NCBI GenBank assembly: GCA_965153455.1
Contig: OZ234493.1
Coordinates: forward strand, 23,612,213-23,676,212
Length of the DNA stretch: 64,000 nt
From: Sphagnum compactum
Taxonomy: Eukaryota
Direction: 5' to 3'
Shown in pieces: positions 745 through 64,000 of this stretch (the stretch's first letter is position 1; every line of letters starts with the position of its first letter). A program made the translations under genes and the position numbers. The notes beneath the pieces are model-generated. The model was not told the DNA's origin, searched no databases, and saw nothing but the letters and a program-made list of their open reading frames with translations.

Positions 745-1240
745 GTGGGTCGTATTAATTAGGTGGGGCTGAGTTCCAAGTTCAGAGTCTCTTTCATTGG
801 CCCATCACAATAAAAATCTGAAAACTTTGGAGACTCTCAATATTGGAGTATTTACTCCAAACACCTAAACATAAACGTCCCAGTATTTGCCCATGTATGT
901 AAGTTCCAAGAGGACAACATTGGGCAAAGAATTTGGGACAAGTGAGGTGCAATTGGGAACATGTTGGGCAACACCTTGTGAAATTATGAAACATGTTGAG
1001 AACCCATTGGGACGATAGGAACGACAAAAAAACAAACGCTCTCCACTCTCCTCAAAAGAAAAAGGATCTGGGCCCCTTGCGTACATGCTGGCTTGTCTCA
1101 TTGGCTGCCAAGAATTTCTATGCTCTGAGTTCTTTATCTTTTTTCAATTGTTATTTTTTACCATTTTTTTAACCAGTTTGATGATGTTCTTTCCCATTTT
1201 TGGCATAGGCTAATGGCAGGGGCAGAATTGTGGGGACATG
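745..1240 (+). repeat. Dispersed non-coding repeat family, copy 1 (others at about 60300-60785 +, about 58610-58930 -, partial at about 16265-16335)
   Basis: Colinear shared blocks with the 60.3 kb copy: attaattag..., ttggcccatcacaa, tactccaaaca, gggacaa(a)gtgaggtgc, catgttgg, ctcattggct, gaattgtggggac. Confidence 0.8.
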
Positions 1241-1594
1241 TTGTAACCAGTTTGGCCAAGACATTTCTGTGCTTGGTTACTCTGTTTTCAACACTAAATA
1301 TTCCATTGTCCCCAGTGGATGTGCTTACACACTCACTTGCAAAATGGTGTACCATGTGTGATTGTCTGCACATCACTAGTTGTAATTTCATATTGTCTTG
1401 CCAAAGAAACTTGACTTCAGAAATATTTTTCAATTCCGTGACAGGACTAGATTTCTGTGGATGTATTATCTCTTTTCATGTATAAATGGTTTATGTGATT
1501 TTCACAGTACCTGACAAAGATTTCAAAATTGTGAAATGTTATTCAATTGAATAATTGCAAAAGGCATATTTATATTTACTATGTAGGTCAAGAG

Positions 1595-2103
1595 TAGTGT
1601 TGTGCATGTAAATGCTTTTAGATTTACACTGTGTGTAAGTGTATAAAATTTGCTTAGAAAAGTGTATGTGTAAAACATTTACACTTGCATTGTTTTACAC
1701 TTTTTCTTACACTTAATTTTTTTTTTTAAATATTGTTTTACATTGCCATTTTTTCTATATATATATATATATAATTTGAATTATTTTATAAGTCTTAGAC
1801 TTTAATTTATCTTAACATTTATGTTGTTTTATGCTATCTAAGTGTAAAACAAGAATGTAAATAGAAAATTAAAGATTCATAACAAGCAAGCTCCTAAGCT
1901 TGCAGGTCAAACAACAGTTATGATGAGCAACGCACTACACACAACCTCAAGAAAAACTTGTTAAAAGTTATATCCTAGAGTTATCCCTTTTTACATTTAC
2001 ACACATATAAGTGTAACACTAACCTTTTACACAACATGTAAATATTAATGATGTACACTTACATGGTTTTACATGCCCATCTACATTTACATGCACAACA
2101 CTA
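1595..2103. mobile_element. Non-autonomous hAT-type MITE (509 bp)
   Basis: Perfect 20-bp TIR TAGTGTTGTGCATGTAAATG (1595-1614 / 2084-2103); 8-bp TSD GTCAAGAG (1587-1594) / GTCGAGAG (2104-2111); internal TTTACAC/GTGTAAA repeats. Confidence 0.9.
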
Positions 2104-3561
2104 GTCGAGAGTTGCCATTTTGAAATTTGAGTTTCAATCTTTTATAGGTTCCAAAATTCAAAACTGTCATAAAGCTCTCACAAACAAAAATTAGTGCACT
2201 TGGAGGGGCACCTTATCTCTATGAATATCCCTCCTAGGAAAGAGGATGGATCTTACACCTACATAATCAAAAGTATCTTACACTTATTCATAATGTGATA
2301 TACTTCTCACTCTTAAGGAGTAGGTTTAAGAACCGTCCCCCTCTTTTGCCTTGTGGTCTACATGTGTTTATCCTACGCCAAAGTTCATGATTGCATTCTT
2401 TAATTCATTTTTTGGTTAAGTATATGAAAACAACCAAACATCAATTTTTTGTTTTGTTCCCCCTAAACATGGTTTCTATTGTGAGCATTTAGAACATCTC
2501 CACCCAACATTTCTATTTTGTGCGAATTTTTGCCAAAAGGCGAATAAAAAAAGGTGCCTATGAATAAGAATGGGGAAGAAAAACTAAATTTAAAATTGTG
2601 TTGCTAAATGCGTCAAAGTCATTGGATTTTGTTTCCATCTATGGCTCCCACCTCCGCCACTTGAATGCCACCTCCACCATAGATGGTTTGTGATGGAAAG
2701 GCTAGATCCTACCCTTGAAAGTTAGGGTATTGCGTTCACACAACCTCCCTTTTCCTACATTGAAAGATTGAGCTTCTTCATTCTATAATGTTGAGTTCAC
2801 CACCTCCGCCTCCCAATGTTCCATTCCTTTTCATGACTTGCCATAACATTGGGATTTTGCAAGATGTTGCAAATGACTATTGAAAATGCACAACATCTAG
2901 AGTTTGGGCTAGTTGCTAAAGGCTAGAGCTATGAGGTTTTGTTGCTTCTAAACTATGGATGGACTATGTATTGTGGAGTCAAACTCCATCAACCTTGGAA
3001 GTTGTTGAATGTTGTTGACATTAATTTGAAGTCTGGACAATTGATCACCATGGTTGGTTGCATACCACACCACTAGGGACTCCTCGTCATCACCCATGAT
3101 TCATTTTTCATGAAACTTTTTTTCATGATCACTTATAAAAATGCAAGTCTTTGACTCCTCAGTGCCCATTTTCGATTGTTTTTTTTTCTATATTGTGGTC
3201 TAGTTTTTTCATGTTGTGCAACTACTATAATCAATTTCAATTTTTCTGGTTTGTATTGATCCTACAAGTGGTAGTCCATTGTCATATTTTTTTTATCATG
3301 TTTGTGGCAAGTCTTGATTTTCATTTTGTGTACACACTTAGCAACATTGGTTCAACATCGTGGTGTGGGAATCACACACTAACAAGTCCCCAAAAATTTT
3401 CTTGATCATGTTCATGTTCATGGTTTAATTTCTATAGGCATTGGTGACTAGGCAGCATCAATCATGATCATGGTGCAATGGCAGCAATTGCCCATAATTT
3501 TTTTCCTTCATGTTCATGCTTTCATTTTGTGTAGGCATTAATAGAATTGAACATGTGTTGT

Positions 3562-17347: not shown

Positions 17348-20300
17348 TCAACACCAAGCAGAGACACCCATCAATCCCACGTTGTACCATCCAGCCACCA
17401 GGTAGCCATGCTCAGAGTTGAGAGTGAAACCACTATGGAAATAGAGGCTGAGAAGCAGGTGAGCTTGACTGAAAGCACAAGTGCTGATCTGAACACCCCT
17501 GAATCCTGCAGCTTCCATCCGCCGGGACCAGTTCAACATGCTCTCATGCCGCTCTACACGAGCAGATCCCTCACAAGCAATGATGTTGCGGATCTTTTGG
17601 CCCGAGAAGATCTGCTCAATCTTGAGGAGAGCCAGTGAATTGTGTTGCAGTGATGTGTCAAAGGCATCAAAGATGGCAGAGTAGTAGCGCAGGCACTCGA
17701 CAAAGCGGTGGAGGAATACAGGACTGTTGTGGTCACCATCATTCTCAGCTAGAGCAACCACACGTGGGTTCAGTGATCGGAGATCGCATAGGAATTGCTG
17801 GAACTTCTCATCACCCTTGATCAGGAGTCGATGCAGCTGAATGAATGTGTTGATGACCAACACCTCGCCCTCATGGAGCTGCACCATCCCAACATGGAAA
17901 TTCACGAGCCTCTCCACAATGGGGCAGAATTCAAATGGCACTTGGAGCTTGGTGGCATACTCTTGAAGCTTTTCCCTTGCCACTTCCAAGTCATTGAAGC
18001 TTGCACCTATGGCTGTCATACGCACCCTAGGTGGCCCCCCTGGCCTAAGTGCCAAAGCCTGAACAACACACGTCTTCCATGTGAGCTCAAGCCAATAGCT
18101 AATAGGTCCATGAACCTTGGCTATCTTGGAAGTACTCATGGATACAAACACCACTTGCTGCATGTCACAAAATCTGTTACCTTACACAAAATCTGAATCT
18201 CCCAGCACCCACATGCTTCCAATATAGCCAAATCCAATACCAGGCAAGATATGAGACACGTTCTGTGTCATCTGCAAGAATCCTACTAAGGTTGAATGTG
18301 GGCACACAACACTTCTGGAGCTGAAAAGTTTGCTATCTGCATGGATCCACAATCCTCCTCACCTTAAGTGGAAAGAGTTTCAGTGTTCTCTCCAACATTT
18401 ACAAACTTCACTATGAATGAAAAGCCACCATCAAGACACAACCTACAGTCCATGACACTGGGGTAATTCCTAGGTCAACCAATCATCCCAAGTGCACAAA
18501 ACAATTCAGCTACTGAGTTGTTTTGATGAACATTTGCATGAATACGCTTCAATCCCAGTGAGAAGGAAGCTAGGGATACCACTTTCCTTTCTGGATTTGC
18601 AGGCCCAATGCTTTCTGATCAGCCTTTGCAAATGAGGGCAAAAACCCTACATATGGTACAGAGACATTTAAGCTCTCATGTCTGCCTGCAGGTCTTCTTT
18701 TCCTACTTAGAATGCAGTATATACTCCAAAAAATATGTCTGATGCAGTCAAGAAGTTCAGCAATCCTTGAATTTCTGGCTGCCAAAAATTAGCTATGGTA
18801 ACAGCCTGCTTGATTCGAATGCAGTTCATCATCTCATGTCTTGTCTTGTGACCATTTGAGAAACCCTTTTGTTGCAGACAAGAATTTTCATGCTGAAGGC
18901 CTTGTTTACAGATGAACCAAATGGGAAAAAAAGCAAGAACAAAACTTGAAGAGTAAGGGCAAGAGTTAAGTCCTGGATTCATGAAGAGGAAGCTCATGTT
19001 AAGCGCTGGAAGAGGAAGATCATCAACAATCAGAGCAAGAATGGTGCAAGATGTGGGAAGAGAGAGAGACAGAGAGAGATGCACCAACTGGTTGAATCCA
19101 TGAGTAATCGGAGGTTTACTTAATGTGTAAATTTCTTTTACCTGAAGAAAAGCAGGCCATTGCATTCCATGCCAGATATCGAGATCCAGAACATGAATGC
19201 AGTTTTCTCGCTCCACAGCGTCCAGCAAGATCTGGTTGCACGTCAAGTGCGCGAATTTGCCCAGGGGAGTGCTCTCGTACAGGACGCTGTAAGCTTCCAA
19301 CATGTCGGAGACGGGTACTGAAATGTCGCCTGCCAGGCCTCGGTAGGGACCGGAATCGGTGGCCTTCATGACTCGTGCCGCCAAAGCGTCCATGAAAACG
19401 GCGGCCAGGCGTTGCATTGTGTTTCCTCGCTGAACTACCAAGGAACTGAGACGCACCAATATCACGTGGGCAAGACTGACTTGTTCGTTCGCCACAGCTT
19501 CCGCACAAGCCAGCAGCAAATGCACCAGTTGCAGACCTGTTGCACCCATTGAAGAAGGACTTTGTTCTGGGATCATCCCCCTGCCGGAATCTGCATTTCC
19601 GTCCTCTTCTTCAAGCCCACAGTTCTGCTGCTGCTGCTGCTGCTGCTGTTGGAGGATCGTCATACTATTATGATTCTGTGCACCACCACCACCACTGCTG
19701 CTTGCGTTCCAGTTTGCACAAAGCCATCCATTGCTCCCGTCCGGCACCATCCACGACCCATTTTGCTGAAGCGCCGTCGGCTCCTGATGCACAACAGTCC
19801 CCGGATGGTACAAATCTGATTCTCGCCCCTGAAATCCAACACCACCCATGTGATCGTTCGTCCAAGAGGAGTGAGGAGGAGGAGGAGGAGGAGTGTCATG
19901 GTCGAAGTGTTGAGATGGAGTGTCAAAACCGACGGTCAAATGCTCCAAGCCGCTTGCTTGCTGCTGCTGCATGGTCCTCAACAGTCCGTCAAGGCCGTCA
20001 GGTGAACTCGCTTGCTGGATCGAATCTCCGAAAATGGGTTCGCGATCGCTTCTGATTAGTGCGGCGGGTGTAAAAGGTGAAATCGCCCGGAGAAGCTCGA
20101 AAGGAGAGCCGGAGCCTTGTGTCAAAGCTCCAGGAGACGGAGAGCCGCCGCCCCCTTGGGACGAGGAGTAAGCATAATGATGCAGGGGATGAGGATCCTG
20201 GACCGCCACCACCTTAGTACTCTTGTTGCCGAGAAGCATCATGGCATTCTCGCTAGTACTGCCGCAGTTGTTGTCAAAGGATGACTGGGAAGACAGAGTG

Positions 20301-20491
20301 AAAGGATAACGGGACTCCCTGTAGAAAGACTCTTCTCGCATGCTGCTCATGCAGTTGTTCTGCACCAAACAGTCTGCTGCTGTGCCTGTGGCATGATGAG
20401 CACTAGTAGTGTGTATATTATGATGCTGCAATCCGAAAATGGAGGCCAGTTCTCCATCGGCAGCTGTGCTGCTTCTTGCTAAAGTCGCCAT
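17348..20491 (-). CDS. GRAS-family transcription factor, two exons: join(complement(19142..20491),complement(17348..18058)), about 686 aa; RAM1/SCR-like or bryophyte-specific clade
   Basis: ATG in ACCATGG context at 20491. Low-complexity N-terminus (poly-Q, poly-P, G-rich). LHRI 'GLQLVHLLLACAEAVA', 'MQRLAAVF', VHIID-like 'IHVLDLDIWHGMQWPAFLQ'; splicing restores 'QWPAFLQ|ALALRPGGPPRVRMTAIG'. PFYRE-region 'FLHRFVECLRYYSAIFD', SAW-region 'IRNIIACEG..RVERHE..W..RM..AGF' and terminal 'SAWC'. Stop TGA followed by two more TGA. Confidence 0.95.
18059..19141 (-). other. Phase-0 GT-AG intron (1083 bp) of the GRAS gene
   Basis: Minus-strand donor CAG|GTAAAA at 19141 and acceptor TGTTGTTCAG|GCT at 18059; joining keeps the frame and rebuilds a conserved GRAS motif. 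Confidence 0.9.
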
Positions 20492-21260
20492 GGTCGCTCA
20501 CCAGATTACTATTTACAAAACAAAACCGCACTTCACAACACTTCTTTACACAATTTCATAGCAGCAAAGTTCTCTCTCTGATCTCCACCAAACTTTTGAA
20601 CGATTGCGGATTTGCAGCTACCACCCACCAAGCAAAAGAAAAAGAAAAAAACAAACAACAGCAGCAGCAGCAGCAGCGCTCTAACATCTACGTAACATGT
20701 ATCAATGGTCGCTTTCTCCCAATTCCATCGTGCATCTGAAGACTGAGTCTTGCAACCCCTCACTCTTCTTTCAAGCAACCACCGCTGCTCCCCCCCGATT
20801 GATTTTCTGACTACTACAAACAGCAACAAGAAGGCTTCCTATCAAGACCTCGCTGTCGACAAAACGCTTGCAAACAATCTAGTGTCAAAATCCTCGAGCC
20901 ACAGTTTTCAAGTGCAATATTCGACTAGTAGACTTCCTCTGCAGCAACCCACAAAAGCTTCTACTAATTGGACTACACAACTGAGAGCTTGAAGAACCGA
21001 ACACCACGACCATAATCATAACTTCTTTTCCTTCTTCTGCTTCTGTTGCACAAACCCAAATCCACCAACAATCAAACAAAAGAGACACGGTACACTTGCA
21101 AACAGAAAAAAACTACTCTAGACTTGCATCTTCTTCTTCAAACTCTATTCGCCCGCCCCCAAAAAAAATCAGAACTAAAAACATACTCTGACATCTCCGA
21201 CACATCTCTCTCCCTCTCTCTCTCTCCACTCTTGTACGCGAAGGTGAAAACTTCCTTTCA
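20492..21260 (-). promoter_or_regulatory. Probable 5' leader / proximal promoter of the GRAS gene with GA-rich tract and (CTG)n run
   Basis: Non-TE-like sequence directly upstream of the ATG; (GA)n tract on the minus strand at about 21205-21227; CAG/CTG run at about 20659-20677. TSS cannot be determined. Confidence 0.45.
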
Positions 21261-41933: not shown

Positions 41934-42852
41934 CAGGGTTGTCAAAATTGACCTGACATGGCCATTTTGCATCAAGCATCACATTGATATTTGTCCTAAC
42001 ATGTCGGTCATGTCCGTCAAGACTAATGCATGAAAAAATATCATTACATTTGAGTTACCTTCGTTATGTTTGGCAACCAAAAACAAATTTGGTTGCCACA
42101 AGATTGGTGATCGAATTTTCAATTTTCCTATCATACATTAGGTGACCAAAAAAATTTAGTCACCACAATCAACGACTGAATTTTGGACACCATAGTTAAT
42201 GACTAATTTTTTTTCAATCTACCCAAAAAAAGTTTTGGAGCTACCTAAAAACATTTAGTCGTTTGATCAACAATTGCCGTTGATCCAAGGATTAAAAAAA
42301 TTGTCGTTGCCCAAAAATTTCGGTCATTGACCTGGGTGATCGAAGTTTTTTGGTCACTAAACTGGGCAACTAAAAAAATTTAATTGCCAACTATGGCAAT
42401 TGAAAATTGGCAACCAAATTTTTTTGAAAGTTGCATGAAAAATTTTAGTTGTTCAATCAACAGTGTCCATTCATCCAATGATTCAATTTTTTCTGTCATC
42501 GCCCAAAAAAATTCAATCGTTGCCCAAAAAGGTTTCGAGCTATGCCTGAAAATTTGGTCACCAATGTGGGGGACTAAAAACTTTTGATTGCCAAACTAGA
42601 TGACTAAAAAAATTTAATTGTTGACTGTGGCAATCAAAAGTTGGCAACCAATTTTTTTAAAAGTCGCCACAGGGTTTATAACAACCGAATGACATTATTT
42701 TCAATCGCTTACAACTGTTTTTTAGGCAGCCCGATTTCATTTTGACTTCGGTTGACCTAGATTGGCCCTATACTAACGTGATGCAAAGGTGCATCTACAT
42801 CCAAATGCATTTGTCGTGGTGTGATAGACGCATGGACATAGTGACAATCTTA
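41934..42852. mobile_element. Non-autonomous hAT element inserted in the Gypsy RT
   Basis: Ends CAGGGTTGTCA / TGACAATCTTA; 8-bp TSD ATGATAAT (41926-41933) / ACAATAAT (42853-42860); removal rejoins RT 'VEK(T)IMQTKYGSYEF'; internal GGCGACCGAA-like repeats. Confidence 0.85.
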
Positions 42853-44493
42853 ACAATAATGCAAACTAAGTATGGGTCTTATGAATTCCTTGTGATGCCC
42901 TTTGGGTTAAGTAGCATTCCTTCAATGTTCACAACTTTGATGAACTCATTCTTCATGAGAAGTTAGACAAGTTTGTCATCATATACATTGATGACATACT
43001 TGTGAACTCTAGGACCATAAAAAAGTATGTGGAACATTTAGAACATGTTTTAAATAAGTTGGAATTAATGTATTTTGGAAATAGGGTGAAAAACAAGTTT
43101 GCCCAAGAAGAGATGGACCCTCTTTGGGAATGTGTTGATTTGGGAAGGGGTTAGATTTTATTTGAAAAACATTAAAGCTTAAGGCATCCAAGAAAAAATT
43201 AGTCACAGCCAAAAATGTTAGATCATTTTTAAGTCTAACTTCTATAGAAATTTTATCATGGGGTTTTTGCATATGGCAAAGCCCCCTTTGAGATCCCCTT
43301 AAAAAGGAATTGTCTTTTGATTAAAGGAAGACCAACAAAAGGTTCTTGAGGACTTGAAAAATAAACTTTCTTTCTTGCTTGTGTTGAAGTTCTTGAACTT
43401 TGTAAATTGTTTGAAATCCACACCAATGCAAATGTTTGCAATCAACGGTGTCTTCATGCAATATGGCACCCAATTGCCTTCAAAAGCAAAAAGATTTAGT
43501 GAGCCCAACTAAGGTGGCCACCAATGAAAATGAGTTGTACACTAGTGTTAATTAGTTGTTAAAAAAATTACAACACTATTTTGAAACTTATAAAACAAAA
43601 GTTTTCACAAACAATGTGTCCTTGAAATATTTTGAAACATAGTTAAGGGCGGACATAATAATTACAGTGGCACAAGACCTTGGCACTTATGGATGTGGAT
43701 TTGATTCACAAACCAAATTGAGACAATGTGGTCCTAAATGCCTTGAGTTATAAGGAGGAGTACAATGAGAATCCTTCAAATAAGATTCAAAGTTTGCAAG
43801 TGATCTTTATACTTGCAAAAGTAGCCTTGAGAGGATAATAAGGGAGGCTTATGTGTAGGATTCCCTTGCACAATGTATTATTTTTGCAAAGTTTTGTGTG
43901 AAAAAAGAGTTAAAGGCATAAACCTCAAGGAGGGACTAATAAAGTGGAAACAATCTTGAACTTATGTGCCAATTGGAAAGTTGCACACCCAAAAAGCAAG
44001 TTGTAATCCTAGAAAATAAAAGAGTGTTTTGAGATAACATTAGACAATGGCCCATGTGCAATGGACAAAAAACTATATGTTTCCATCGTTAATTGTTTGC
44101 AACAAACATTCTTTATTTCTTGGGATTGCAACAAATTCTCCTTGGCGATGTAAAATGGATGGCAAACCAACCCACATGAAACCACTTCACAATAAAAGAC
44201 CAGCCACATGACATAATTTCCCACTTAATAAAATACATTATTCGAAACGTAAATATTTATATGTTTTTTCATAATGAAAATGAACAAAACCGCAAATATT
44301 TTGGACTCAAACATTATAATTCATTAATGCTAATTTGACTTGATATGTAAAAAGACATTGTTCTATTTTTTAGGAATATCTATTATCATGGACCTAATCA
44401 TCCATCAACATTATTTGCACATTTCAATGACATAAGACTTGTGTTCTATGACGATAAAAGACCAAGTCAATGTTGTTTTGAATATGAAAGGAT

Positions 44494-44702
44494 GCTCTTT
44501 TGTCATCATGGTACCACTACAAATCATGTGCCAGCCTATGGATGAAAGTGAGTTTAAGTTGGATGGTTAGATTCATGAAAGAGATGTTCCACAAAGTCAG
44601 CATTGGCTCGCTCTTTTGTCGTCATAGTATTGCTACAAGTCACTTGTCAATGTATGGATGAAAGTGAGTTTAAGTTGGATGGTTGGATTCATGAAATAGA
44701 TG
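44494..44702 (+). repeat. Tandem duplication, period about 116 bp
   Basis: tatggatgaaagtgagtttaagttggatggtt(a/g)gattcatgaaa occurs twice, with similar upstream flanks at 44494 and 44610. Confidence 0.85.
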
Positions 44703-44739
44703 AAATTCATAAACATGTTCTTTCATAGGTTTGGGAATA

Positions 44740-47700
44740 CATTTGAGAATGGACTTAGCCATCCATCTACATTATTCACATTATTGTTTTAATCATTCAG
44801 TCACTAGCCATTACAACCATTCGATCGCCAGCCCTTCCAACCATTTGGTTGCCAACCTCTACAACAATTCGATTGTCAACCCTTGTCCGACCTATAACCC
44901 GATAGCCCTAGGTGTCCGCACCCGGGACATGGCATGACCAAAATTGTCCATATTGCTCTATGAATGGCTAGGGTCCTATTTGCATGGATCCAACTAGGGT
45001 TTAGGCTTTTGTAGCAAGAATCAAATTTTGCATAATTCTCAAAATGTTTTTTAAAAATGTTTCAATATGGTTAGAAAATTTTGTTGCAAAATTATTGTTT
45101 GCTGATAGACATAGACACCCATATGTCGTGGGATATTGGGGTTAATTTTTAAGCCATACTCCTACTCTTCTTCAATTGGCATTGAAAGGACAAGAAGTTT
45201 GATGTTTAAACCCACATATCACAAAAATGAAAGCACACAAATGAAAGAATAAGTCTATTATGGAAGCAAAATATAGGAAATTTGAACCCATGTATCACAT
45301 AAATGAAAGAAAGTTGCAAAAGTCTATTCTAGAAACAAAACTATAAAGCATCAAGAAATAATGTTTGTTCTTAGAAAATGTCATGTTATAACTTATGTTT
45401 GACAACTTGTGGCCTAACTTAAACCATGCTTTAATGGTTAATGCTAGTTATATGTGTTGTCAGAGGACCATTAGGCCCAACATCTTTGGGCTTCTATTTG
45501 GTTCATGGTAATCATTATCCCTTTGTACCTCACCACCATCATCTGATGCATTCGTGTTATCATTATCATTGCTATGTGGATCACCTAAACCGAATGTATT
45601 AATGGTGTGCACTTCCACTGTCTTAGCCTTCCTGACATGTCTAGTCACCAAATGTTTAGTATGCCACCAACCATCGATGTTTGTAATCTCGTCCTTGGTC
45701 ATCAAGTTCATCCCCAACAAATGCCTTGGCTGCCTTGTCCCGATGTTTTTGCCTTTGTGTGGTCCTTTTGCTTTGAGATTGTGTTGTTGTGGCCTCCCTT
45801 GGTCTTGAAGGTGGTGGAGGTCCCATTGGTGCCCCTCTTTGCCCACTTGATATATTAATAGATGATACTACAACAACCATTTGTGGGTTGATCTAAATGT
45901 TACCCCTCGAACCCGATCTAAATATGTGCTGAGAGGTTTAATGTCCAAATCAAATTTGTGGGCATGATTCTCAATGGGTATGATCCTAAACAAACCCGCA
46001 TCTCCATCATTTGTGGGTGTTATTGATGCTGTGGGTCATGCAATTCATCACTTGATACTTAAAGGTTCTTTGGGGCATGCATTAATGGTACATTGCTGGG
46101 TGTTCCAAGGTAAGAAATTGGTCCACTTTTTCTATGGCTTTTGGTTCAATGGTGACCTCTCCCAATGTTGATGGTGTTCGTGTGGCCAATATTTCCAACA
46201 TTGCTAAAATCATTCAATCCACTAATCACAACATCAACAATTAATAGGCAAATTTTCATTTTATGCCTCTTAAGATGGTTCAAAATTTAGACCTTCCCAA
46301 TACCCTTCACATGTCAAAAGTTGAGCAAAAGGAATTTTGCTTCTGGGTCCAGGCCTAATATTGAACTCCTCTTCATCAACAAATGTATATGGATCATTAA
46401 GTTATTGACCTCCTTGGCCTAGTCCATGTTCATTGATGTTGGCGTCCCCAAATTTGTCATTAATTGTGTTTCCAAGCATTCCACCAATTTCATGTTTGTC
46501 CAAGCCATTCATAATGTCGCTTTCAAAAGCATCTTCATCTTTGCCGCTCACGTTGGAATCGATGTTAAACATTGAATCCTCTAACAACCTGTTCTTTTCA
46601 TACCATGCTATAGGAATGGCACCAGGTCGTTCCTTCAAAAGTTTGCTATTGGTGTAAATATAGACTAGATCTATTGCTTGGTCAGATTTGAGGTGATTTC
46701 GCACCTTGTTATGCACAAAGGAATATGAACTCCAATTTCATTCACATGATGATGTTGAATAGACTTGGGCAAGAATACATTTAGTAATGGGTGCAAATGT
46801 GTGAACGCCTACTCCAATAAAGTCCAGCCACCATTCATGGGGAGCCATATTTAGTAAGGTTGCAATAGGAATGTCTACAAATGGTCCTCGACCTTCAACA
46901 AGGTCTGCAAAGTTTGTCAAAGCTTGAACATATGATGTTGCATCGACCGACATCTTCCATAGTACCTGCTTGATTCCCTCCTTTGCATCAACATCATCAT
47001 GGATCATATTGTTTCCAACAAGATAGGGCTTGAAGAGTGCTTCAACTAATGGAGGTTGGTCTTCATCATTCTCCATCAACGTTGGATTTGACTTTTAGCA
47101 CTAGTGGGTCAGCCAATAATTGCACATGTTTCTCCAATGTCTTCACAGCAAGCCATGCCTTTCCCATACATGGGCCTTTTCCATCAAACTCCCTTAATGC
47201 CACCAAGACCAACTCGACCATGTGAATAAAATTTGCATAAGAGTCCCAAGAAACATCGTTTTGCACACTTTGACAAACCTCAACCACCTTTGATATGGTG
47301 CCCCTTCGATGCAAGGTCTATAGAGAGTTAATTAATACTAACCAATTTAGGTCTACGATTATCTTTTCAATAGCCTCTCACACATTAACCAAACTGTCAA
47401 CCATGAAAAAATTTGTGGGAAATCGTGTTTTTATAAGGTGTGACAAGCTGAAGGTTGGTTCAAACCGACGGTAAATTGCAAGAGGCATGTGGTGTCTCTA
47501 AATGAATGAGACAATTGTCTTTGCATGGATCACAAGACATTTCACCCATGGTTTTTCCCCCCAATCCTCCAAAAGGAGGTCAAGACAATGTGCCGCACAA
47601 CTTTGAAAGTATAAGGTTGGGTAACGAACCCTCAAGATGTTTGATGCACTTCACATGTTGGAGCATTATCTGTGCAGATTTGGACAACATTGTCCACACC

Positions 47701-49570
47701 CACGTTTTGAATGTATTTTGCCAAGGCATTGCATGTATGTATTATGAATCCTTCCAATCCCCTATTGTGTCAGATGGGTCGGGTCTTAAGAACAAATCTC
47801 CATTTGGGCAAACTAACATGATGTTTAACAAAGGGTGACTATTAATGTCGTCCCACCCATTTGAACGAATAGTGGCCCCATACTTGTGGATTGAGTTTTT
47901 AGTCTTCTCGGCCACACATCTTGACAAATCTTCTTTATAACTCTTCAATAGTTATGTCCAAATTGAATGATATGACAACAATTTAGAAAGTATTTGCCCT
48001 TAGAGGTAGATTTCACTACATAAATGAAGGTCGAATGGCAGGCTACATTGAATGGGATATTGGCTCCATAAAAGAAAATCGCCCATTTCTTATCAAGATT
48101 TTGTTTCGTGGTTGAATTCATTCGCTCTTGTAAGGTCATTTGCCTCATTTGATGAGGTGGAAGGTTTAGCATAGGAATGGGATCATCCAAGGTAGGCCCA
48201 GACAGTGGAGGACAATCTGCACCATCTGCTTGGGGGCCTACAACAGAAGAGTCATCAAAAGAACCCAATGACCTATCATTAACAAGGTTGGGAAGGGAGT
48301 TGGACGCTTGGCCATCATCCAGCAGGGACATTCCCACCACACCTTGCAAACAAGGCCTTCACTTGAGGCCTAACCTTTGCACATAGGCCAACTCCTCCTT
48401 TGCCACCCCCCTAGGATAGTAGCCCAAATGACTCAGCATCATGTCCTTACGATAAATGAATTAGAGGCTGCAAAACTTGCATTGTACATTACTGGGTCCT
48501 ATGGTTGCCATCATCACATCAAGGTACCATGGCTCCCACATGCTACGCTTACCATCCATCTCTAGTGCCTTAAAAAGAACACAAGTGAAGGAGACTCTGC
48601 AACAATTGTGGATATAATTGAGGGACACAATATCATAGCCTTTGGACAGGCCCCATTTCATTAGTTGCCAATTTGGTATGTGACAAGGATTGTGTTCAAC
48701 ACAACTAGAGTCCACACACTTGAAATGTTTATGAAATAGCAACAACTAAGAGGAAATTGGGAAGCTTTATAATTCAAAATATGGTAAGCCACCAAACATT
48801 TTATATGCAAATTGAACGATCGTAATTTATTAATCCATGATTTGGTGATAGAAATCCGGTCATCAGTGTGCAAAAGTGGGTATATCATACATTTTGAAAT
48901 TCAAAAGCAACCAAAATTCACGATAATCCAATCTATGTGCAAATTAAATGACATAATTTATTTATTCTAGTGTGAATATGGGATATCGTATAATTTATAT
49001 TGAAAAGCAATTGAAATTGATTATTAAATTTGGTCACCCCTATCCATGCTTGGGTTTCGAGTTTCCATTTACCACTGTGACAGGAAGAAGGTGACCAAAA
49101 TTAGCTCCCCCCATCGAGTTGAGGCAACCAAAATTGGGTCCTCCCATCCAGCCAAGGCGACCGAAATTGGGTCGCCCCATCTAACCGGGGTGATTGAATT
49201 TCGATTGCCCCATCCAAGTGTGTCACCTTATGGAGGTGATCGAGGCGTCCTAAATGGGGTTGCCCCATCTAGTTGCATTGATAGGCAGAAGGCAACCAAG
49301 CCAATGACAATCCAAAATAATAAAATAATATAGAGGCATGATTAAATTAGTAACCCAACCGTCATGTTTTGAAAAGAAACTTTTTCAGTCTCAATTTACC
49401 TTGTCTAGATGGCGACCTTTCTAGTCTCGATTTACCCTATCCAGATGGCGACCTTTTCCGGTCTAGATTTACCCTGTCCAGATGGCGACCTATTTCGTTA
49501 GAGTTTTTTATGGTTTGGGTTAAGCTTAATCGACACCAACCTCATCCGAGTCTAGCTCTCGAACACTTAC
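44740..49570 (-). mobile_element. hAT element containing the above transposase (approximate ends)
   Basis: Subterminal repeat arrays at about 44800-44880 and 49080-49490 (GGCGACC motif; three 36-37 bp units at about 49387-49491); TIR and TSD not cleanly resolved. Confidence 0.55.
46400..48570 (-). pseudogene. Decayed hAT transposase (BED-like zinc finger, DUF659, hAT dimerisation domain)
   Basis: 'MWEPW..VQCKFC'; 'FFYGANIPFNVA'; 'GATIRSNGWDD..HPLLNIMLV'; 'CAAHCLDLLLED'; 'TRFPTNF'; 'PHEWW..ILAQVYSTSSCE*NWSSYSFVHNKVRNHL..DLVYIYTN'; stops and frameshifts. Confidence 0.9.
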
Positions 49571-50139
49571 TTGTGGTGATTAAAGATATGACAATGTAGA
49601 AATATTAGCCATTGTGCCATGGAATATTAAATTAAATGCACTAGGGCCATTGATGATGGACAATTTTTTTTATATTTTAAGCAACACACTAAGAATGAAA
49701 CATAATAATTTGACAATTCTTAGCATTTTTTCCAACTTTTGGCAATTGAAAATGAGGTTCATTTTCAAAATTTTCCTTTTGAAATTGTCTTGGATGTGGA
49801 AAACTTTTCCATTGAGAAATCAAGTTAGGTGACTTGGGTCCCCTATCCACGCGGGGACCCAACAAGAATATTGAAATTCAAATTACAAAAATGAGATCAA
49901 GAAAGAAAATTACAAACCTAAACACAATAATGAATATTATAAAAATAAGAGGTAACAATGAATGTTACAAAAATAATCCAAAATTGAGACAAAAAACCAA
50001 GACCAATAAAATTGAAAAAAGTAATGTGAACTCCAAACTTGAATTAAGTTGAAATTTGTATGCACTTTATTATAAATGGGAATGTACATCCAATCCACTC
50101 TTTCCTATGCTACAATTATTTACAAATGTCATTAAACCC

Positions 50140-51700
50140 TAACCACTATAAAGCTTAAACATTATGTTATCGTCGATAGCTTCTGGTGGAGTCCAATTGT
50201 AAGGAGGTCCCATCATAACATTCATAGCTAATTGTGGATTTCTTCGCACGTGGGGATCCGGGTTTGAGATTTCTCTAAGCTAAATCGTAAAACGTGACAT
50301 GGTTGAAGAATCCACAAAATATTCAATGTCAATGTTTTCTTGCCATATGAGCTCCACAAGCTTAACCACTAGATATGTCTCCGACTTTGAAGTGTTAGTC
50401 CCATTGGTTGAGGAAATTTGATGGAACTTCATTCTTCATATGTAAAAAAGCTCCAGTGCCACCCACCATTGAAAAGCCATGTTGTTGAGTTGGGGTTTCT
50501 TCTTTTGTCGCAAATCCATATGGAGATGGGTTATCCTCCCCTAGACTCCTAGCCTCCCCCCAATCACACACACCAATGTATACAACCGAAAGACTGTTTG
50601 GTGGAAAATGCAATAGGATGTTGTTTTGTGATAAATTATTATGCAATGTCTTAAACTATTGGACTGCATTCATGATGCACAAAAATGCCCAAGCCAATTT
50701 CACTTGTGCTTGTCTAAATGTCACAAGACATTGTGAGACTCAAGATCTGGCCAAAGCCCTTGCATAAGCTCCCGATTGTCGAGAGGTTGATTTTGGCTAT
50801 CGTGTTACCTAAACATCTTTTGAAGCGTGCCTCTATTCCACCACAATCGGTATGCCTCCATGGTTTCTACATGGATGGCATAAAAGTTTATGACACCTAG
50901 ATGATCAGTGGAACAAGCCAATGCCTCCATAGAAAGTCAACACCAAGCCTCGTAATTATCCTTAGTTTTTAACTTTTTGCTAGCAAACTCAATGTACAAA
51001 GGCAACCAATCAAAGTTTTCAATCCGCACTTTGTGAATTTTGCCATGTCCACCTTGCCAACTTGGACCATTCAAAGCAAGCACAATGGTGGTAGATCATG
51101 GCACCCAAATGACCCCTTGTCCTTGTGCTTGGTTCAAGTTTGCCTTCTACCCCTTTTCCACCCATGAAGGCAATCGTGTTTTACTTTTGGTAAAAATTTT
51201 GGACCAACCCATCCACCATTTCACCTTCTCATGCAACAAACAAATTTTGATGGAGGAATCCTCCTTCAATGGGTAAATTATTGACACCCATTGGACCAAG
51301 TTGAAAGTAGCATCCTTTAGCTTCAAATCCTCCAATCTTGAATAGTCCTTGCAATTACGATCCTTTTCAAACTTAGGGGCTTCCAAAGCTTCTCGAATTT
51401 TTTTTGCATGGTCATCCTATATCAATCAATCCTCTCCAATTGAAGATTAACATATAACATCATCAAGGTAGTTATGTCCTCTAAGAATAAGTACATCACA
51501 ACTTTTTGCACTGCCATAGTGGCCGTTGGATTGGGCCAGTTTTTCCTTTGCGACCTTCTACTTTTAATGAGAAGATCCTTTAGAAGTCAACCCAATTCCA
51601 AACTCTTTCTCCCTTGAGGATTCTTCTTGAAGGCGCTTGGATGAATGGTCTAAGAAAAAAATCGTGTGTAAGGTGTTTAGACATTAATCAGACATGTTGC
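50140..51700 (-). pseudogene. Protein kinase pseudogene, no intron visible within the kinase domain, with N-terminal extension
   Basis: Subdomains in order: Gly-loop 'WQGGHGKIHKVRI', 'EFASKK', alphaC 'SMEALAC', 'HLGVIKL', catalytic loop 'LHNNLSQNNILLHFP', 'IGVCDWG' (DFG-like), 'WWVALELF' (APE-like), 'SETYLVVKL' (IX), 'DPHVRR' (XI); several stops and frameshifts. Confidence 0.85.
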
Positions 51701-52039
51701 CCACTCACCTTAACTCCTTTCACCCTCAAACCCCACCTCCCAAGCAACAATTGCCAAAAGCAATTATAGTCTTGCAAGGTTGAGGCAATTAACCAAAGGA
51801 ACCCTGTAGTATGTAGTGTCCTCACCCTTCTTTTTCACCTCTCATGTTGCACCGAAGTTCCTCGCATTGATTGCAAAGAACAACCATAAATTAAGAACCC
51901 ACTATGGCAAACAAAGCGAGGTGGAAGAGATGATACAATAGGATGGTAGTGGCCAATTTATACTCAGGTTCGACTTTATCAAGGAACTGGAGTTTGAACT
52001 GATTATGACTGTACTTTCCCATCATTTTAGTGCGATTGA

Positions 52040-52620
52040 ATTTTGGTCACAACTTGTCCACAAAACGACCAAAATTTGGCCGACATCATTTGCACATGCA
52101 TGATCACTCAAGGGGCTAACCAAAATTTGGTCGCATTCCTTGGACAAGAGCGATCATTACCTAGACAAGGGTGGACAAATTTGGTTGCATTTTTGGATAG
52201 GGGCGATTGTTCGTTGGGTGATCAAAATTCAATCACATTCCTTGGATAAGGCCGATCATTACCTAGACATAGGTGGACAATTTCAATTGCACTCTTGGAT
52301 AGGGGTGATTGCTTATGAGGGCGATCAAAATACAATCACATTCTTGGACAAGGCCAATCGCTTGTAGGGGCAATCGAAATTTAGTCGCATTCCTGGATAA
52401 GAACGATTGTTTTTTGGACAAAGGTGGACAAATTCAGTTGCATTCATGGACATGGGCGATTGTTTCTTGGACAAAGGTGGACAAATTCCATCGCATTCCT
52501 AAACAAGGGCGATTGCTACTTGGACAAGGGTGGACAAATTCAATTGCATTCCTAGATAGGGGATATCACTATTTAAATAAAGGTCAACAAATTTGGTCCA
52601 TCCATGGACAAGGTTAAATA
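52040..52620. repeat. Degenerate tandem array of 40-52 bp units (aaattcggtcgcattcctggacaagggcgat[..ggacaagggtggac])
   Basis: About 10 recognisable units with recurring ggacaa(a/g)ggtggacaaatt and (c/t)gcattc(c/t)tgga. Confidence 0.85.
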
Positions 52621-54053
52621 TATTATGATTGAATTTAGTTGCGATCTGGACGGTTGAGATTAATTACATGATGCAACAAATTGTTGAGATCAATGTAATT
52701 GATTAGATGGATAGTTAAAATCTCCCTAGTTATAAAAAATTCAACAGAGTTTTCTTACTGTGACATTTAGTGGTTTCATCATGTAATGTTCTTTCAATTC
52801 TTCAACCAAAAGTGCATGTGTTGGTTTCGCACGGTAACTTTTTTACATAGTCTACATATGTTACGTCTGCAAGGGTAACTATTTTACCCTTGATACAAAA
52901 ATTATTCTATTCAGTATAGCTTGACCCTAAGTTGACTTTAAACTGACGTGACATAGGGTTGCGTTGGTGCTTAAATTGACATGATTGACATGACATGAAA
53001 AGGTTGACACTAATAACCTTAGTGCACATTTTAAATCCATGGTAAAAAATATGGGGAATTGTTTTTAAATAATAGTGCAACTAATGTAGTTGTAGCCTAC
53101 ATGCAAATACTACATGCTATTTATGCCATACTAACCTAGTTACTTACTAACCATAATTATAATATTATAATTAATAATATAGTTATAATTATATGGTAAC
53201 TATGTAGCTTGTTAGCTAATGTAACCTACTAACGATAGGTATAATAATGTAGTTAATAAAAATATAATAAAATATAATAAAAATAATTGAAGAATAAAAA
53301 TTACATTATTATTTTAAAATAATTACATTGATATTAAAATATTAATTATTCAATAATAATACTCTTCATTAATAAGTAAAATATTACTATTTATAATTGT
53401 AATTATAATATTTTTAAATAACTATATATAATTAGTTATAATGAATATTAATATTATGATATAATTATTTTGGCTACATTAACCATAGCTAAATTCATTT
53501 TGGTTAAATTAATGATGAATAACTAATTTTGGCTAAAATAAATATGAGATTAAATTTAAAATGGGTAAATTAATTAGTTAATTTAACCAAGGTCTGGTGT
53601 AGATTTAACTTTGATTGATGTGAGTTTAACCTAAGTTTAGTCAATGTTTTGCTTTGGGTAGCATTAGTTAACATGGTTTAACTTTTGTATTAAAGGTATA
53701 AGACTACTACAAATAACTTAGGTAGATGTATTGAGTGTATTAACATATGGATGTATTAGCTTCGGCCTTGATTTTTATGACACGTGTCCATTTTATACAC
53801 TACTAGTTGCATGTTAATTGCACACACAATTGTATGGCCCAAAATTATACATGACCAATTTTGTAGTTGCAAGTGCAACCAATCTAGTTACAAAGGACAC
53901 CTAGTTGCATGCAATTGCATAATAACTAGTTTCAAATGGTAAGATTTCCATTAGTGCAAGTTCAAATTTGAGTAAGCACAATTTCAACACAATGTCAAGT
54001 GCAATCTATGGTCATTGCATGAATTTCCTTGTTATTTTGAAATTTTCAGCATA

Positions 54054-55958
54054 TAGTAACTTCCCGCCTAAGTACGCAACTTGAACCTGGGAGGATTGTG
54101 CGTACTTAGCCAATAGGCGCACACTTTAGATGAATCACTTCCTAATCGCTTGATTCGGCTGTAATGTCGAAGAAACCGAACGAAAAACACCTCAATGAGT
54201 CCCAGCGATGCGAGATCATAGCGAAGCTGAACAAGACGGATGCTCCCAGTAAAAGGGCTATAGCGCGCGAGTATGATGTTAGTGAAGGAGCTATCAGAAA
54301 AGTGTGGGACAAGCGGGAGCAAATCCTAGAGCGATATGCCTTGATGTCTGATGAAGCTAAAGAGAAGACTTTTCGATCCTCTGTTGGTCGTTTCACTGAG
54401 CTTGAAGGCATGCTTTACATCTAGATTGACAACATGTGTCGTGTCAATCTTCTTGTCCCGCCATCTCTCGCCATCCCCAAGCTTAAAGTATTGCATCGAG
54501 TTTATCGATTCCGAAAACGGACTTCAAGGCATCCTAGCAATGGCTAAGTCGATTCAGAGTGCGCCGAGGGTTGCAAAAGATGCTGCTTCACGGAGAGGGA
54601 GCTGAAGTCAACAAATCCTATCCTAGATTGCTGGTAGCTTTAGACGACCTCTACGCGATTATTACCCAATATGATGCTGAAAACGTTTACAATATGGACG
54701 AGACCGGCCTGTTGTTTCGTCTATTACCGAGATACAACCTTCTAATGCCAAATGAGGACATATCAACCATTAGAAGGAAGAAAAAATCCAAAGATCGGGT
54801 TTCTCTTATCGTGTGCGCCAACACTGTGGGAACTCATAAAATTCCTTGCGCATTGATCGGCAAACCAAAAGCACCTGCCTGTATCAAGGACCACTAATGG
54901 CCTGTTCCATATTTCAATCAAGCTAAAGCTTAGATGGACGTGGAAACGTGCTGGAAGTGGTTCAACGAAGTGTTTCTTCCAGAAGTGAAAAAACGAACCA
55001 GACGTCGGGTTCTTTTACTGTTGGATAATGCCCCAGGATGCTTTGAAGCTTTTGAATGCGACAATGTTAGGATCATTTTTTTTCCCCCAAATTGCACAAG
55101 TTGGAAATAGGCCTGCGATATGGGCATAATCGTAGCTCTGAAGAAGAGGTTCAAATATCTCTATTTCAAGGATGTTCTTGACTTCTATGATTTAGATGAG
55201 GAGGCGAAGCTTCGAAAGAAAATGCAGGGGCGGAGATTACGACGCGGTGCTGCTAGAGTTGCATACGGAAATCTAGCTCACCTGCTCGATGCCGCGAGTT
55301 ATGTCAAAGAAGCTTGGCAATCCATGTCACCAAGCTCTATCAAAAATGCATTTATCAAGGCGGAAATAATGACATTAAAAGCCGATCAAGAAGCAGTGAA
55401 CGAGATCGAGGATTTAGGGACCGAAGTTGCACAAGCTATCGCAGCTTTAAATCTTTCTGTTGGGCAAGACGAGCTTGAAGAATTTGTTCATGTCGACGAT
55501 GAAAACAGTGAAGAATTCGCAGCTGCACTTTTGGAAGACGTTGAAGAGCTTTTGGAGACGATGAAGATTGCTGAAGAGAATTTGGACGATGACAATAATG
55601 ATGACATTCTTACCTCTCAAGCGTTAGATTCGGGGTTTAGGAAACACCGTTGTATTTAAAGGATTTGAGTCACTTTATAAGCAAGTTGTTGATATAGAGG
55701 ATCAGTTGTTCTGCTCCGAAGTTCGAGAAGAGGCTAAGGAAACATTCGATGATCTTAGAAAGTTGTTTGAATCGTTTCAAAGTAAGGTCTGGGCTGTCAC
55801 CTTGAAAGCCAAACATAAGAATCTTCAAAACTTGCGCCAAATGACAATCCATGACATGTTGAACTAAATAAATCTGAACCCTATTTTTTTGGGAAAGTAA
55901 TGCGTACTTTACCGGGATGCGTACTTAAACGGGTGTGTACTTAGGCGGGAGGCTACTG
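54054..55958 (+). mobile_element. Full-length pogo/Tigger-like Tc1/mariner-superfamily transposon (1905 bp)
   Basis: 24-bp TIR tagtaacttcccgcctaagtacgc vs rc cagtagcctcccgcctaagtacac (4 transitions); TA TSD at 54052-54053 and 55959-55960; subterminal GCGTACTT repeats. Confidence 0.93.
54164..55867 (+). pseudogene. pogo-type DD30D transposase pseudogene (CENP-B-like HTH plus DDE_1)
   Basis: HTH 'KRAIAREYDVSEGAIRKVW', 'FKAS*QWLSRF', 'LHGEGAEV', 'YNMDETGLLFRLLP', 'LLLLDNAPG' then 30 residues then 'DMGII'; acidic tail; C-terminal 'RQMTIHDML'; five premature stops plus frameshifts. Confidence 0.92.
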
Positions 55959-61999: not shown

Positions 62000-64000
62000 C
62001 GGCACATGGGATTATTAATGCATTCTTTCTCCTAAAGGGGAGCTTATCTGTTGGCAGGCTAATCTTAAGACCGACTTTTACAAGTAAACAAGGACGCCAA
62101 GCTCTTCAAATTAGGATTCTCAACTTAAAACCCTTAAGAAACCCACGTTCTGGAAAATTGTAGGCCACACTAACTTAGAGAGGAAAACTGGAGAGAGAGA
62201 GAGAGAGAGAGCAGACAATTGGACGGATGCAGCAATTGTATAGAAGACTCTATTGAACCGGGACCTTATTGCCTCCCTGACACGGGTGGACCAGAGTGAA
62301 GCAGCACCTACTACACTAGTACCTTCACCTTCTTCAGAAGAAACCCCGAGAAGGGGAGGGAGGCAGCAGCCCCATCAAACATTAAAGAAATCCAAGAATT
62401 ACAAGGGGGGCAAGAAGCACCACACGATGGTGACGCAATCAACCCCAAAGATGCCTAAGTGGCACCATTCCGCCTTAAAGGCTTGCTCAATCCTATCTTG
62501 AATACTAGGGTCCCGGGAGGATCGAAGGAATTAATGGCCTTCCAAGTGGCCATTCCAACCTCAACGATAGCAACCCAGGCTTGTTGAAGGATTTTCCTAG
62601 AGGAATACTGGTTATCAAAATGCTTCCGGCATCTCTCTGTCCAAAAAGCCAAAGTGATGCGTTTGAGTAAAATTGAAAAGCACATAATGAAAGTCGAAGA
62701 CCACAACTGCGAAGGATGTCAAGCGGTTGTCTGATGTAGGAGAAGCCTCCTACATGATACCCTTGGACTCCAGGGGGGTCATCTTCTCTCTCGAAGACAG
62801 CTTCACCAAGCATGACGAAAGGCCAGGAAAGAATGATGTCATTGGGCGCTCCCCATTTTTGCCATATGTGATAGAAGGCCTCCCAAGCCCGTTTGGCGCG
62901 GGGACACTCGAGGAGACAGTGTTGAGGGGATTCAGGGGCCTCCTCAGTGCAAACCTTGCACGTGGGGAGGATCCCCATGCATTGTAGCCATGTGCCAACC
63001 GGGAGACCCCGGTTTAAAGTGAGCCATATGAGAGTGCCGACCTTCCGGGGTCGGGCGTTATGCCAGATTCTGGCAATAACTTGCGTAACGATGGAGTTTT
63101 GCAGGTTTAACCTTTGAATGAAGGAGCAGATGTTGGCGCTATGGGTGGGTTTCCTTGCATTTCGGTAGCCCCGCTTTACGGAATAGCCGAAAAAAGGAGA
63201 GTCGCCCATTTGTGAGGAGGCTTGCCAGTGCCACTCTCCCGGGTCCGAGGGAAGCCCATCAATGAAACCGGATTCGAAAATCCAAAGTATGGGAAGCTTG
63301 GTGAGTGATGGGAACTCTCTGGCAACTTTATATGGGGCTCCGTGTCTTTCTCGAAAGAGGACCCTGATTGGGTGATAACCTTCAGGGGAAAGGGTTATCA
63401 CTTGGGAGTTCGTAGCTCTAATGAGACCAGTGGGGGTAACCCTCTGGAATTCATTGGCTTGCACCGTGTTGGGGGTGACCCCGGTTACATGGTATATCCA
63501 TTCTAGAGTGGTGTTGTTTCCGGAGTTTCTTTTGCTGATCCAGTCCCCTACCTGAAAGCGGTTAGTGTAAGTTGCAGGATTCCATGGGATGCTCGCTATG
63601 ATGATTTCTCTGTTGTTTCTGTTGGTGGCGTGGTAGGTCAACCGAAGGGCTTGGAGGCTTTTCCATGCCCTGCCCTCCTGGTCCCAAAGATCTTTGATTC
63701 AAGTGCAGCCAGAATTGGCAATGGCTCGTCCTTCATTGCGACCACTCACTCCCAGAGGGTGACCAGTCATGTTGAGGATGAGAGGGTTGTTGAAAATAGG
63801 TTGTCTGAGAACCTCCGCATAGGATGCGGGTTCGGACTTTGCTAGACCAACTCTTACGTTGAGCCAAGAGCCAAGGATGCTCTTCCAAAATGAGCATTTC
63901 AATTTTTTGAGCTTGGGGGCGGCAAAAAGCCAATTTATATCCGGGATGCTTGGCCCTTTGCCGTGCACCGGGAGATGGACTTGATCTGCTCGATGCCTTA
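62000..64000 (-). mobile_element. 3' part of an L1-clade LINE (ORF2 C-terminus with zf-RVT), running off the window
   Basis: ORF 62505-63641 with 'KVGTLIWL..GLPVGTWL..CKVC..ESPQHCLLECPRAKRAW' (CCHC); GC-rich and little decayed; frameshifts near 63640-63700 and 62710; (CT)n in the putative 3' UTR at about 62191-62211. Confidence 0.88.

Follow-up and report, generated by a model that had tools for sequence, protein, structure and literature searches.

The window analysed in this work is a stretch of 64,000 nucleotides from Sphagnum compactum (contig OZ234493.1, positions 23,612,213 to 23,676,212 of the forward strand), and our subject is a decayed protein-kinase gene on its minus strand together with the mobile element that carries it. 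The gene occupies 50140..51638 (start and stop approximate), is intronless, and consists of a helical N-terminal domain and a kinase domain. The kinase subdomains follow one another from about 51638 to 50140: the G-loop at 51053-51027, the beta-3 lysine at 50987-50973, the alphaC glutamate at 50933-50919, the catalytic loop at 50643-50620, CDWG at 50568-50557, the APE equivalent at 50468-50448 and a C-terminal GPPYNW at 50210-50193. A first-pass annotation of the same sequence had proposed this order without intron-sized gaps, and the motif coordinates confirm it. The copy itself is dead: it has nine stops per 289 codons in one part and three per 122 codons in another, at least two frameshifts, HNN in place of the catalytic HND (i.e., the catalytic Asp is lost) and ALE in place of APE. 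The annotation had given the loop as HNxLS; the loop is indeed unusual, but the ‘x’ is the catalytic Asp, which is invariant in 20 aligned intact relatives. In the same 20, K249, E266, H361-N362-D363 and C386-D387-W388 are all invariant and N368 is kept in at least 90%; the other signature proposed earlier, CDWG in place of DFG, holds as described.

Upstream of the gene, on the same strand, lie a TATA-like box (51957..51962, with TATAAA or a near variant at this place in 16 aligned rows) and a short-motif array with a GTCC/GGAC core and units of about 50 and 100 bases (52050..52613). This is the repeat array that had been noted upstream of the kinase; it is real, and its tandem units lie at 52134-52359 and 52377-52593. 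Beyond it come a left subterminal region of short TGTCA/TGACA motifs (52690..53010, minus strand; 30 genome matches, itself included) and, at 53011..53021, a left terminal inverted repeat on the minus strand, in a decayed form of CAGGGTTGTCA (end model E = 5e-22). Downstream of the kinase, again on the minus strand, are a second short-motif array (49040..49500) followed by TATAAA at 48999, a decayed hAT transposase gene of the DUF659 type (46561..48568) in the orientation of the kinase, and further element sequence common to other copies (43989..46560), cut off at 43989. The unit shared between copies starts at 53021, and not at 52750 as the earlier interval (49826..52750) had it, and it continues past 49826.

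A search of the genome (382 Mb, 702 contigs) with three protein queries returned at least 54, at least 78 and at least 81 matches, numbers which are lower bounds and not copy numbers, and which show the kinase to be multicopy. Every one of the at least 81 matches to the intact relative P0178 contains stops, and no intact or intron-bearing donor is found among them (82 of 173 candidates scored). The annotation was right to see here a degenerate member of a transposon-borne kinase family with many copies, and no host donor is recognisable. The copies split into a family A, which includes the window copy and whose members share about 70-85% DNA identity, and a family B, about 60% identical to A; the kinases of both are sisters with a support of 97 in a quick tree, 14 rows of which are under half filled. 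The Pfam model Pkinase_fungal (PF17667), for which we take the FunK1/Crinkler-associated kinases as the comparison family, aligned to decayed copies at E = 0.047 and 0.18 over about 20 residues each, and is absent from the Pfam listing of three intact kinase proteins. Of the PDB sequence searches with the decayed kinase, one gave no match and another a single unrelated weak match.

The ends of the element are where its nature becomes apparent. The left boundary at 53021 is sharp, is common to close copies whose flanks are unrelated, and reads YAGGGTTRTCA. It is present in 14 of the 16 family-A kinase loci fetched (two of the loci are one duplicated locus), with independent flanks at 13 of the 14. 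Ends of the CAGGGTTGTCA type stand on both sides of 12 elements, the window copy having the left one only, and the right-end pattern has 43 genome matches versus 2 for a control. In family B, both ends were found in five of ten kinase loci (5.5-18 kb), four of these five also carrying the transposase, and the 8-bp target duplications of the five agree at 8/8, 7/8, 7/8, 7/8 and 5/8 positions, differing only by transitions. Altogether 12 end pairs were tested, six with the kinase and six small derivatives (the boundary of the C20 copy being placed by hand one base inward of the end-model position). In ten of them the 8-bp flanks differ by transitions only, as compared to 1 of 132 shuffled pairs, and the mean flank identity is 6.3/8 versus 2.6/8 after shuffling; the two failing pairs come from the sole family-A kinase copy that has both ends and from a small nested element. 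Duplications of 8/8 and 7/8 flank two small elements whose left end is of the window's type. Some candidate readings were rejected along the way: a 7-bp (P-like) or 9-bp (Mutator-like) duplication seen from the C15 copy, since other pairs give 8 bp, and a CACTA...TAGTG pair at 53025/49640, since CACTA is not kept in other copies. As a separate observation, three family-A left ends (L076, L077 and L079) have an identical outer flank and so were spread inside another repeat, and L073 (G000:C3:23618840-23620920) shows a small element of family B sitting inside one that has a family-A left end.

The first-pass annotation had assigned the kinase to a Helitron, on account of a 10-bp hairpin followed by CTAA some 300 bp downstream of it. 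The hairpin is real. It has a perfect 10-bp stem and a 9-base loop (49834..49862, minus strand), folds better than most shuffled versions (z = -3.22, with 1 of 200 shuffles equally good), and is followed five bases later by CTAA (49825..49828, minus strand), about 300 bases beyond the kinase. A CTRR lies within 9 bases of a random window position in 6.6% of cases. In favour of a Helitron, there are 9 bases from the end of the hairpin to the last CTRR base, and the site reads CTAG, the canonical end, in four of the six other aligned copies, two of the four being one duplicated locus. Helitrons are characterised by a 5′-TC, a CTAG-3′ end and insertion at AT, without terminal repeats or duplication (PMC4588551), and it is to the gene-capturing Helitrons of plants that the hairpin and CTRR bear a likeness (PMC4588551). 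Here, however, the motif is internal, with neither a TC start nor an AT insertion site, and the family has the terminal repeats and target duplications that plant Helitrons lack (PMC4588551). Past the CTRR position all seven other hairpin-bearing copies continue, for 48-333 bases (the shared sequence in the window being 49492..49824, minus strand), and none of the seven ends there; identity before and after it is alike in six aligned copies (e.g., 104/115 before and 99/114 after). The base that follows is C and not T in 7/7 copies (the window and the six aligned), whereas Helitrons insert into AT (PMC4588551), and the common 5′ start is YAGGG and not TC. The hairpin region has no match in family-B kinase copies, and the right arm of the hairpin is similar to the array motif of the element itself. 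No Rep/PIF1 helicase was seen in the stretches scanned with Pfam, and no genome-wide search was aimed at Rep/PIF1-linked copies. The Helitron reading fails because the copies run past CTRR and because the family has terminal repeats and duplications; as the mobile unit a Helitron is already refuted, and with it the Helitron ends (TC...CTRR, between A and T, without duplication) that the copies had been expected to share. That a Helitron nonetheless ended at the hairpin/CTAA, or that an ancient Helitron end lies nested in family A after having delivered the kinase, we consider very improbable.

The transposase belongs to a different superfamily. The window gene matches PF04937 in three frames (best E = 7e-9, above the cut-off) and the complete C8 element matches it at E = 9e-22, DUF659 being a mark of hAT transposases (PMC6710886). 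The hAT dimerisation model gave no match in the scans of the window and of the C8 element, and the transposases read in both are decayed. Two further genes of longer copies are missing from the window copy: one is called gene 2, the other encodes a RING finger (matches to zf-RING_2 at E = 1e-4 and 2e-3 fall short of the cut-off). In complete sister elements the transposase, the RING gene and the kinase lie within about 12 kb. The order in family A is left end, kinase, gene 2, RING and transposase; in family B it is left end, transposase, gene 2, RING, kinase and right end. Both families include copies with inverted internal blocks. Two family-B copies have the gene 2/RING block turned round (L066 and L096-L097, L068), and in family A a block next to the transposase has opposite orientations in L043 and L083; arrays lie near the breakpoints, and such blocks are possibly invertible cassettes. 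A second, different RING-like frame follows a family-A copy at L040 (2300-5800, plus strand), with no Pfam match at E 0.05.

It could be argued that the kinase piece and the transposase piece of the window belong to separate insertions, two defective elements from related families that lie side by side, given that the window copy shows neither a right end nor a duplication, and that the junction at 49492-49299 is uncovered by any other aligned copy. Against this, C7:15.05 Mb has the left end, kinase and transposase arranged and oriented as in the window, four further loci have this left end connected to remnants of RING and/or transposase, and links of kinase to RING and of RING to transposase are found in other copies. 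Two separate elements are, in our judgement, a rather improbable explanation.

Within each family, kinase transversions are spread evenly over the three codon positions (0.069/0.055/0.074 between A copies and 0.055/0.046/0.054 between B copies), the pattern that post-insertion decay should leave. The A-B comparison gives 0.153/0.135/0.331, a 2-2.5-fold enrichment at the third position, and therefore the kinase was under selection: it was kept by purifying selection while A and B diverged, after which each copy decayed neutrally, for the most part through transitions. The corresponding A-B values are 0.127/0.087/0.282 for the transposase and 0.188/0.192/0.262 for the RING gene, a similar depth for all three, which fits their inheritance as one unit. 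Transitions outnumber transversions by about 2.5-3 to 1 between A copies, and many stops derive from TGG, CGA, CAA and CAG; both would fit methylation-driven decay, a well-established source of such transitions.

The same data can be read differently if the element picked up a host kinase family as a passenger (Pack-type transduplication), perhaps in two events from paralogues that had diverged, and with no service to the element, the selection signal then dating from its life as a host gene. There is precedent for this, in that a DUF659 hAT of fungi captured and amplified a host histone H3 (PMC6710886); the gene order differs between A and B; and ten contigs with intact kinases show no hAT ends in a pattern scan. 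On the other hand, passive capture has to contend with the lack of an intact or intron-bearing donor among the matches scored, with the similar A-B depth of the kinase, transposase and RING, with intact relatives that are intronless and stand behind arrays and TATA boxes, with 3500 variant contigs in one single-organism run, and with the absence of any named protein, automatic labels aside, among 20 clusters looked up. We regard it as unlikely, and the kinase as probably a long-standing accessory gene of the element and not a recent host capture.

The intact relatives come from outside this genome. Where intact copies were sought, uninterrupted or nearly uninterrupted open reading frames (ORFs) turned up on ten metagenome contigs of 1.6-7.7 kb, and none of the matches scored in S. 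compactum was intact. A profile search gave 487 cluster representatives at E <= 0.001, and the roughly 20 long proteins read among its matches have about 370-650 amino acids; the 20 clusters looked up have neither an accession nor more than an automatic name. The intact relatives are intronless, retain all catalytic residues at lengths of about 500-650 amino acids, and, in 3 of 3 cases, match Pfam Pkinase (PF00069) above the cut-off. The structural model of P0178 (mean predicted local distance difference test score, pLDDT, 81) has a kinase fold and compares with many kinases at Z 17-20, the best being 3fbv (Z 19.8, root-mean-square deviation 3.6, 245 residues aligned). By their residues and modelled fold they thus appear to be protein kinases, which depart from the eukaryotic protein kinase fold in having no closest subfamily (15-23% identity, tied scores), an HND loop, CDWG for DFG, and a helical N-terminal domain of 150 residues without clear match. 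This domain (residues 51-203 in the model of P0178) had no match in the atlas, a best Z of 5.0 among 48,161 chains and no Foldseek match at E 0.001, missing matches which do not establish a new fold. A PDB sequence search with an intact relative matched the catalytic loop region only (best E = 9e-4). Many intact relatives have basic stretches resembling nuclear localisation signals before the helical domain, and no secretion or membrane segment was evident, by eye, in the intact proteins read. At L060 and L057 the gene follows a short-motif array with a GTCC core and a TATA box, as in the window.

One single-organism run contains 3500 variant contigs on the kinase sequence L053, which gives no copy number and fits a multicopy family. 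In two soil RNA runs from two studies, contigs cover 26/30 and 25/30 bins of L053, both runs lacking its first 216 bases, which are covered in two other runs; this is a weak hint of expression of an L053-type kinase. Some further observations were made on these contigs. L055 and L056 hold the same 3.17-kb intact-kinase unit in circularly permuted form, with a 128-base terminal overlap in L056, and may represent a tandem array or a circle. L051 has at 2507-3007 (minus strand) a SAD/SRA-like fragment (E = 5e-4, below the cut-off), which converges on an almost intact kinase gene; SRA domains are readers of DNA methylation. L060 has at 683-1774 (plus strand) an ORF of 364 amino acids without Pfam or PHROGs match, with an array and TATA layout like that of the kinase 4 kb downstream.

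An intronless kinase could also suggest a viral or prokaryotic origin, the region being then an endogenous viral fragment, and one of the seven look-alike sets in the protein atlas does come from giant viruses. Those viral fold matches are, however, generic (10-18% identity); none of the pattern matches was confirmed as a relative in viral contigs (0/2 and 0/27) or in prokaryote genomes (0/20), in scans that detect close relatives only; and the kinase is surrounded by hAT ends and a transposase. Such an origin is improbable in the extreme.

Taken together, the stretch very likely represents the left-hand portion of a multi-gene cut-and-paste element of the DUF659-type hAT kind that has long been dead, with the kinase as its long-standing accessory gene. 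The family has CAGGGTTGTCA terminal repeats and 8-bp duplications, and it carries the transposase, the RING-finger gene and the kinase as intronless cassettes; its members would have moved by being cut out and reinserted by their hAT transposase. Several points weigh against this interpretation. No right end or target duplication was identified for the window copy, the sequence of which breaks off at 43989, and pairing 53021 with an inverted repeat at 41934 matches only 4/8 flank bases, 41934 being the end of a separate 919-bp element. Two ends were not seen on any family-A copy that holds kinase and transposase together; for family-A copies with the transposase, a search of 12 regions gave no right end, and in the sole two-ended family-A kinase copy the flanks agree over 7 bases at an offset of one. 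Rearrangement is heavy among family-A copies, and their gene order is assembled from several loci. The codon signal of the RING gene is weak, with uneven values even between A copies (0.194/0.152/0.245). The ten metagenome contigs show neither terminal repeats (pattern scan) nor a recognised transposase ORF (three side ORFs were Pfam-scanned). The ratio of nonsynonymous to synonymous substitutions (dN/dS), for which 9 of 28 pairs were below the saturation cut-off, is 0.14-0.15 in deep pairs (near saturation), a value in favour of the interpretation, and 0.41 and 0.37-0.92 in the others; the range of 0.37-0.92 among close intact copies suggests that constraint is weak at the tips.

What the cargo does for the element is a more tentative matter. 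Short-motif tandem arrays in the non-coding regions of a multi-gene DNA transposon, the situation known from VANDAL elements and VANC, are present here, and transposases activate cognate copies (bioRxiv 10.64898/2026.08.24.746577). By analogy, the arrays before each TATA box might bind a factor encoded by the element, most simply the transposase, that would switch the cassettes on, whilst in the nucleus the kinase and the RING ligase could modify either the transposase or the silencing proteins of the host and so keep the element active, much as with VANDAL/VANC or with the accessory genes of Plavaka. We put this mechanism forward as a whole with a good deal of reserve, the chances being somewhat against it. 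Its broadest form, that a widespread and old plant (probably moss) hAT lineage encodes the kinase family, with its unmatched helical N-terminal domain, and a RING ligase as a post-translational signalling module behind GTCC-core arrays, disarms silencing with them, and has members that are intact, high-copy and transcribed elsewhere, is a doubtful though conceivable extension.

Alternatively, the kinase could be a selfish toxin or drive factor by which loss of the element would be punished, with the RING protein or gene 2 as its antidote, or serve host-beneficial stress signalling, and not anti-silencing. The co-occurrence of kinase and RING in both families is in line with this, as is a hAT-flanked enzyme of fish whose targets include both chromatin and immune proteins and which ubiquitylation eliminates (PMC12957317). 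Yet many copies have the kinase without RING or the reverse, all of the at least 81 matches in this genome are dead, and secretion or membrane segments are not evident by eye in the intact proteins read. Roles of this sort are unlikely, and form the main alternative to the mechanism above.

The break in the element at 43989 is occupied by a separate sequence, a reverse-transcriptase/RNase H-like fragment on the plus strand (42853..43988; RVT_1 E = 0.012-0.023 and RT_RNaseH E = 0.043, below the cut-off). Next to it lies the 919-bp element mentioned above, a non-autonomous hAT derivative on the minus strand (41934..42852) with family-B ends and an 8-bp duplication, attattgt/attatcat, the difference between the two resembling one CpG decayed on opposite strands. 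Other occupants of the window are a decayed pogo/Tigger-like element at 54054-55958 (plus strand), with a CENP-B_N match at E = 2e-5, weak DDE_1 matches, 27-base inverted ends and TA on the flanks; intact-looking ORFs at 17348-20497 (minus strand), which we take, from their motifs, to be transcription factors of the GRAS family and which are consistent with a land plant; and an open frame of 397 amino acids at 62505-63698 (minus strand), which resembles the C-terminal zinc-knuckle region of a long interspersed nuclear element (LINE).

The window copy is dead, and no effect of its own is shown. The interest lies in the family. In the literature consulted, the products of DNA-transposon accessory genes either bind DNA or act as modifiers of chromatin or DNA; a selected kinase and RING gene in a hAT would, if true, add phosphorylation and ubiquitylation to the routes by which transposons reach their host, and the existence of intact natural copies makes the role of the kinase testable. 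Kinases of this type that are counted among bryophyte genes or annotated in environmental data may belong to transposons. In the literature searched, repeat libraries and genome-paper supplements excepted, we found no account of a kinase as cargo of a moss hAT, and the words ‘kinase’ and ‘hAT’ do not occur in a 2026 review of plant gene capture (PMC13317346); the family could already sit in a repeat-library entry or genome-paper supplement.

Gene-carrying DUF659 hATs and multi-gene DNA transposons are already known, the kinase family being the unnamed part. A close likeness is the DUF659 hAT with histone H3 of Pseudocercospora fijiensis and related fungi, which also has short terminal repeats and an 8-bp duplication, forms elements of about 10 kb with whole-gene cargo, and leaves copies decayed by transitions (PMC6710886). 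That element carries a host gene which can still be recognised and whose donor survives (PMC6710886), whereas here the cargo is an unnamed kinase family and a RING gene; for these no donor was found, and a selection signal extends across two families. In fish, hAT ends have likewise mobilised an enzyme that modifies proteins, AACRNL, which is reported to relieve silencing of its own locus (PMC12957317); it differs in being a Crinkler-derived ADP-ribosyltransferase and not a kinase, flanked by non-autonomous hAT ends or by mariner, outside a transposase cassette (PMC12957317). In Arabidopsis, VANC binds motif arrays in VANDAL elements (PMC5735166), which carry VANA, VANB and VANC but are Mutator-like and hence of another superfamily, VANC being a tested DNA-binding anti-silencing factor (PMC5735166). 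Finally, the giant Plavaka (EnSpm/CACTA) elements of red algae also combine a transposase with an accessory cassette, repeat arrays and mostly degenerate copies (bioRxiv 10.1101/2025.02.11.637652), yet theirs are three accessory genes and a SET, methylase and oxygenase cargo in a CACTA element (bioRxiv 10.1101/2025.02.11.637652), as opposed to the kinase and RING gene that are carried here by a hAT.

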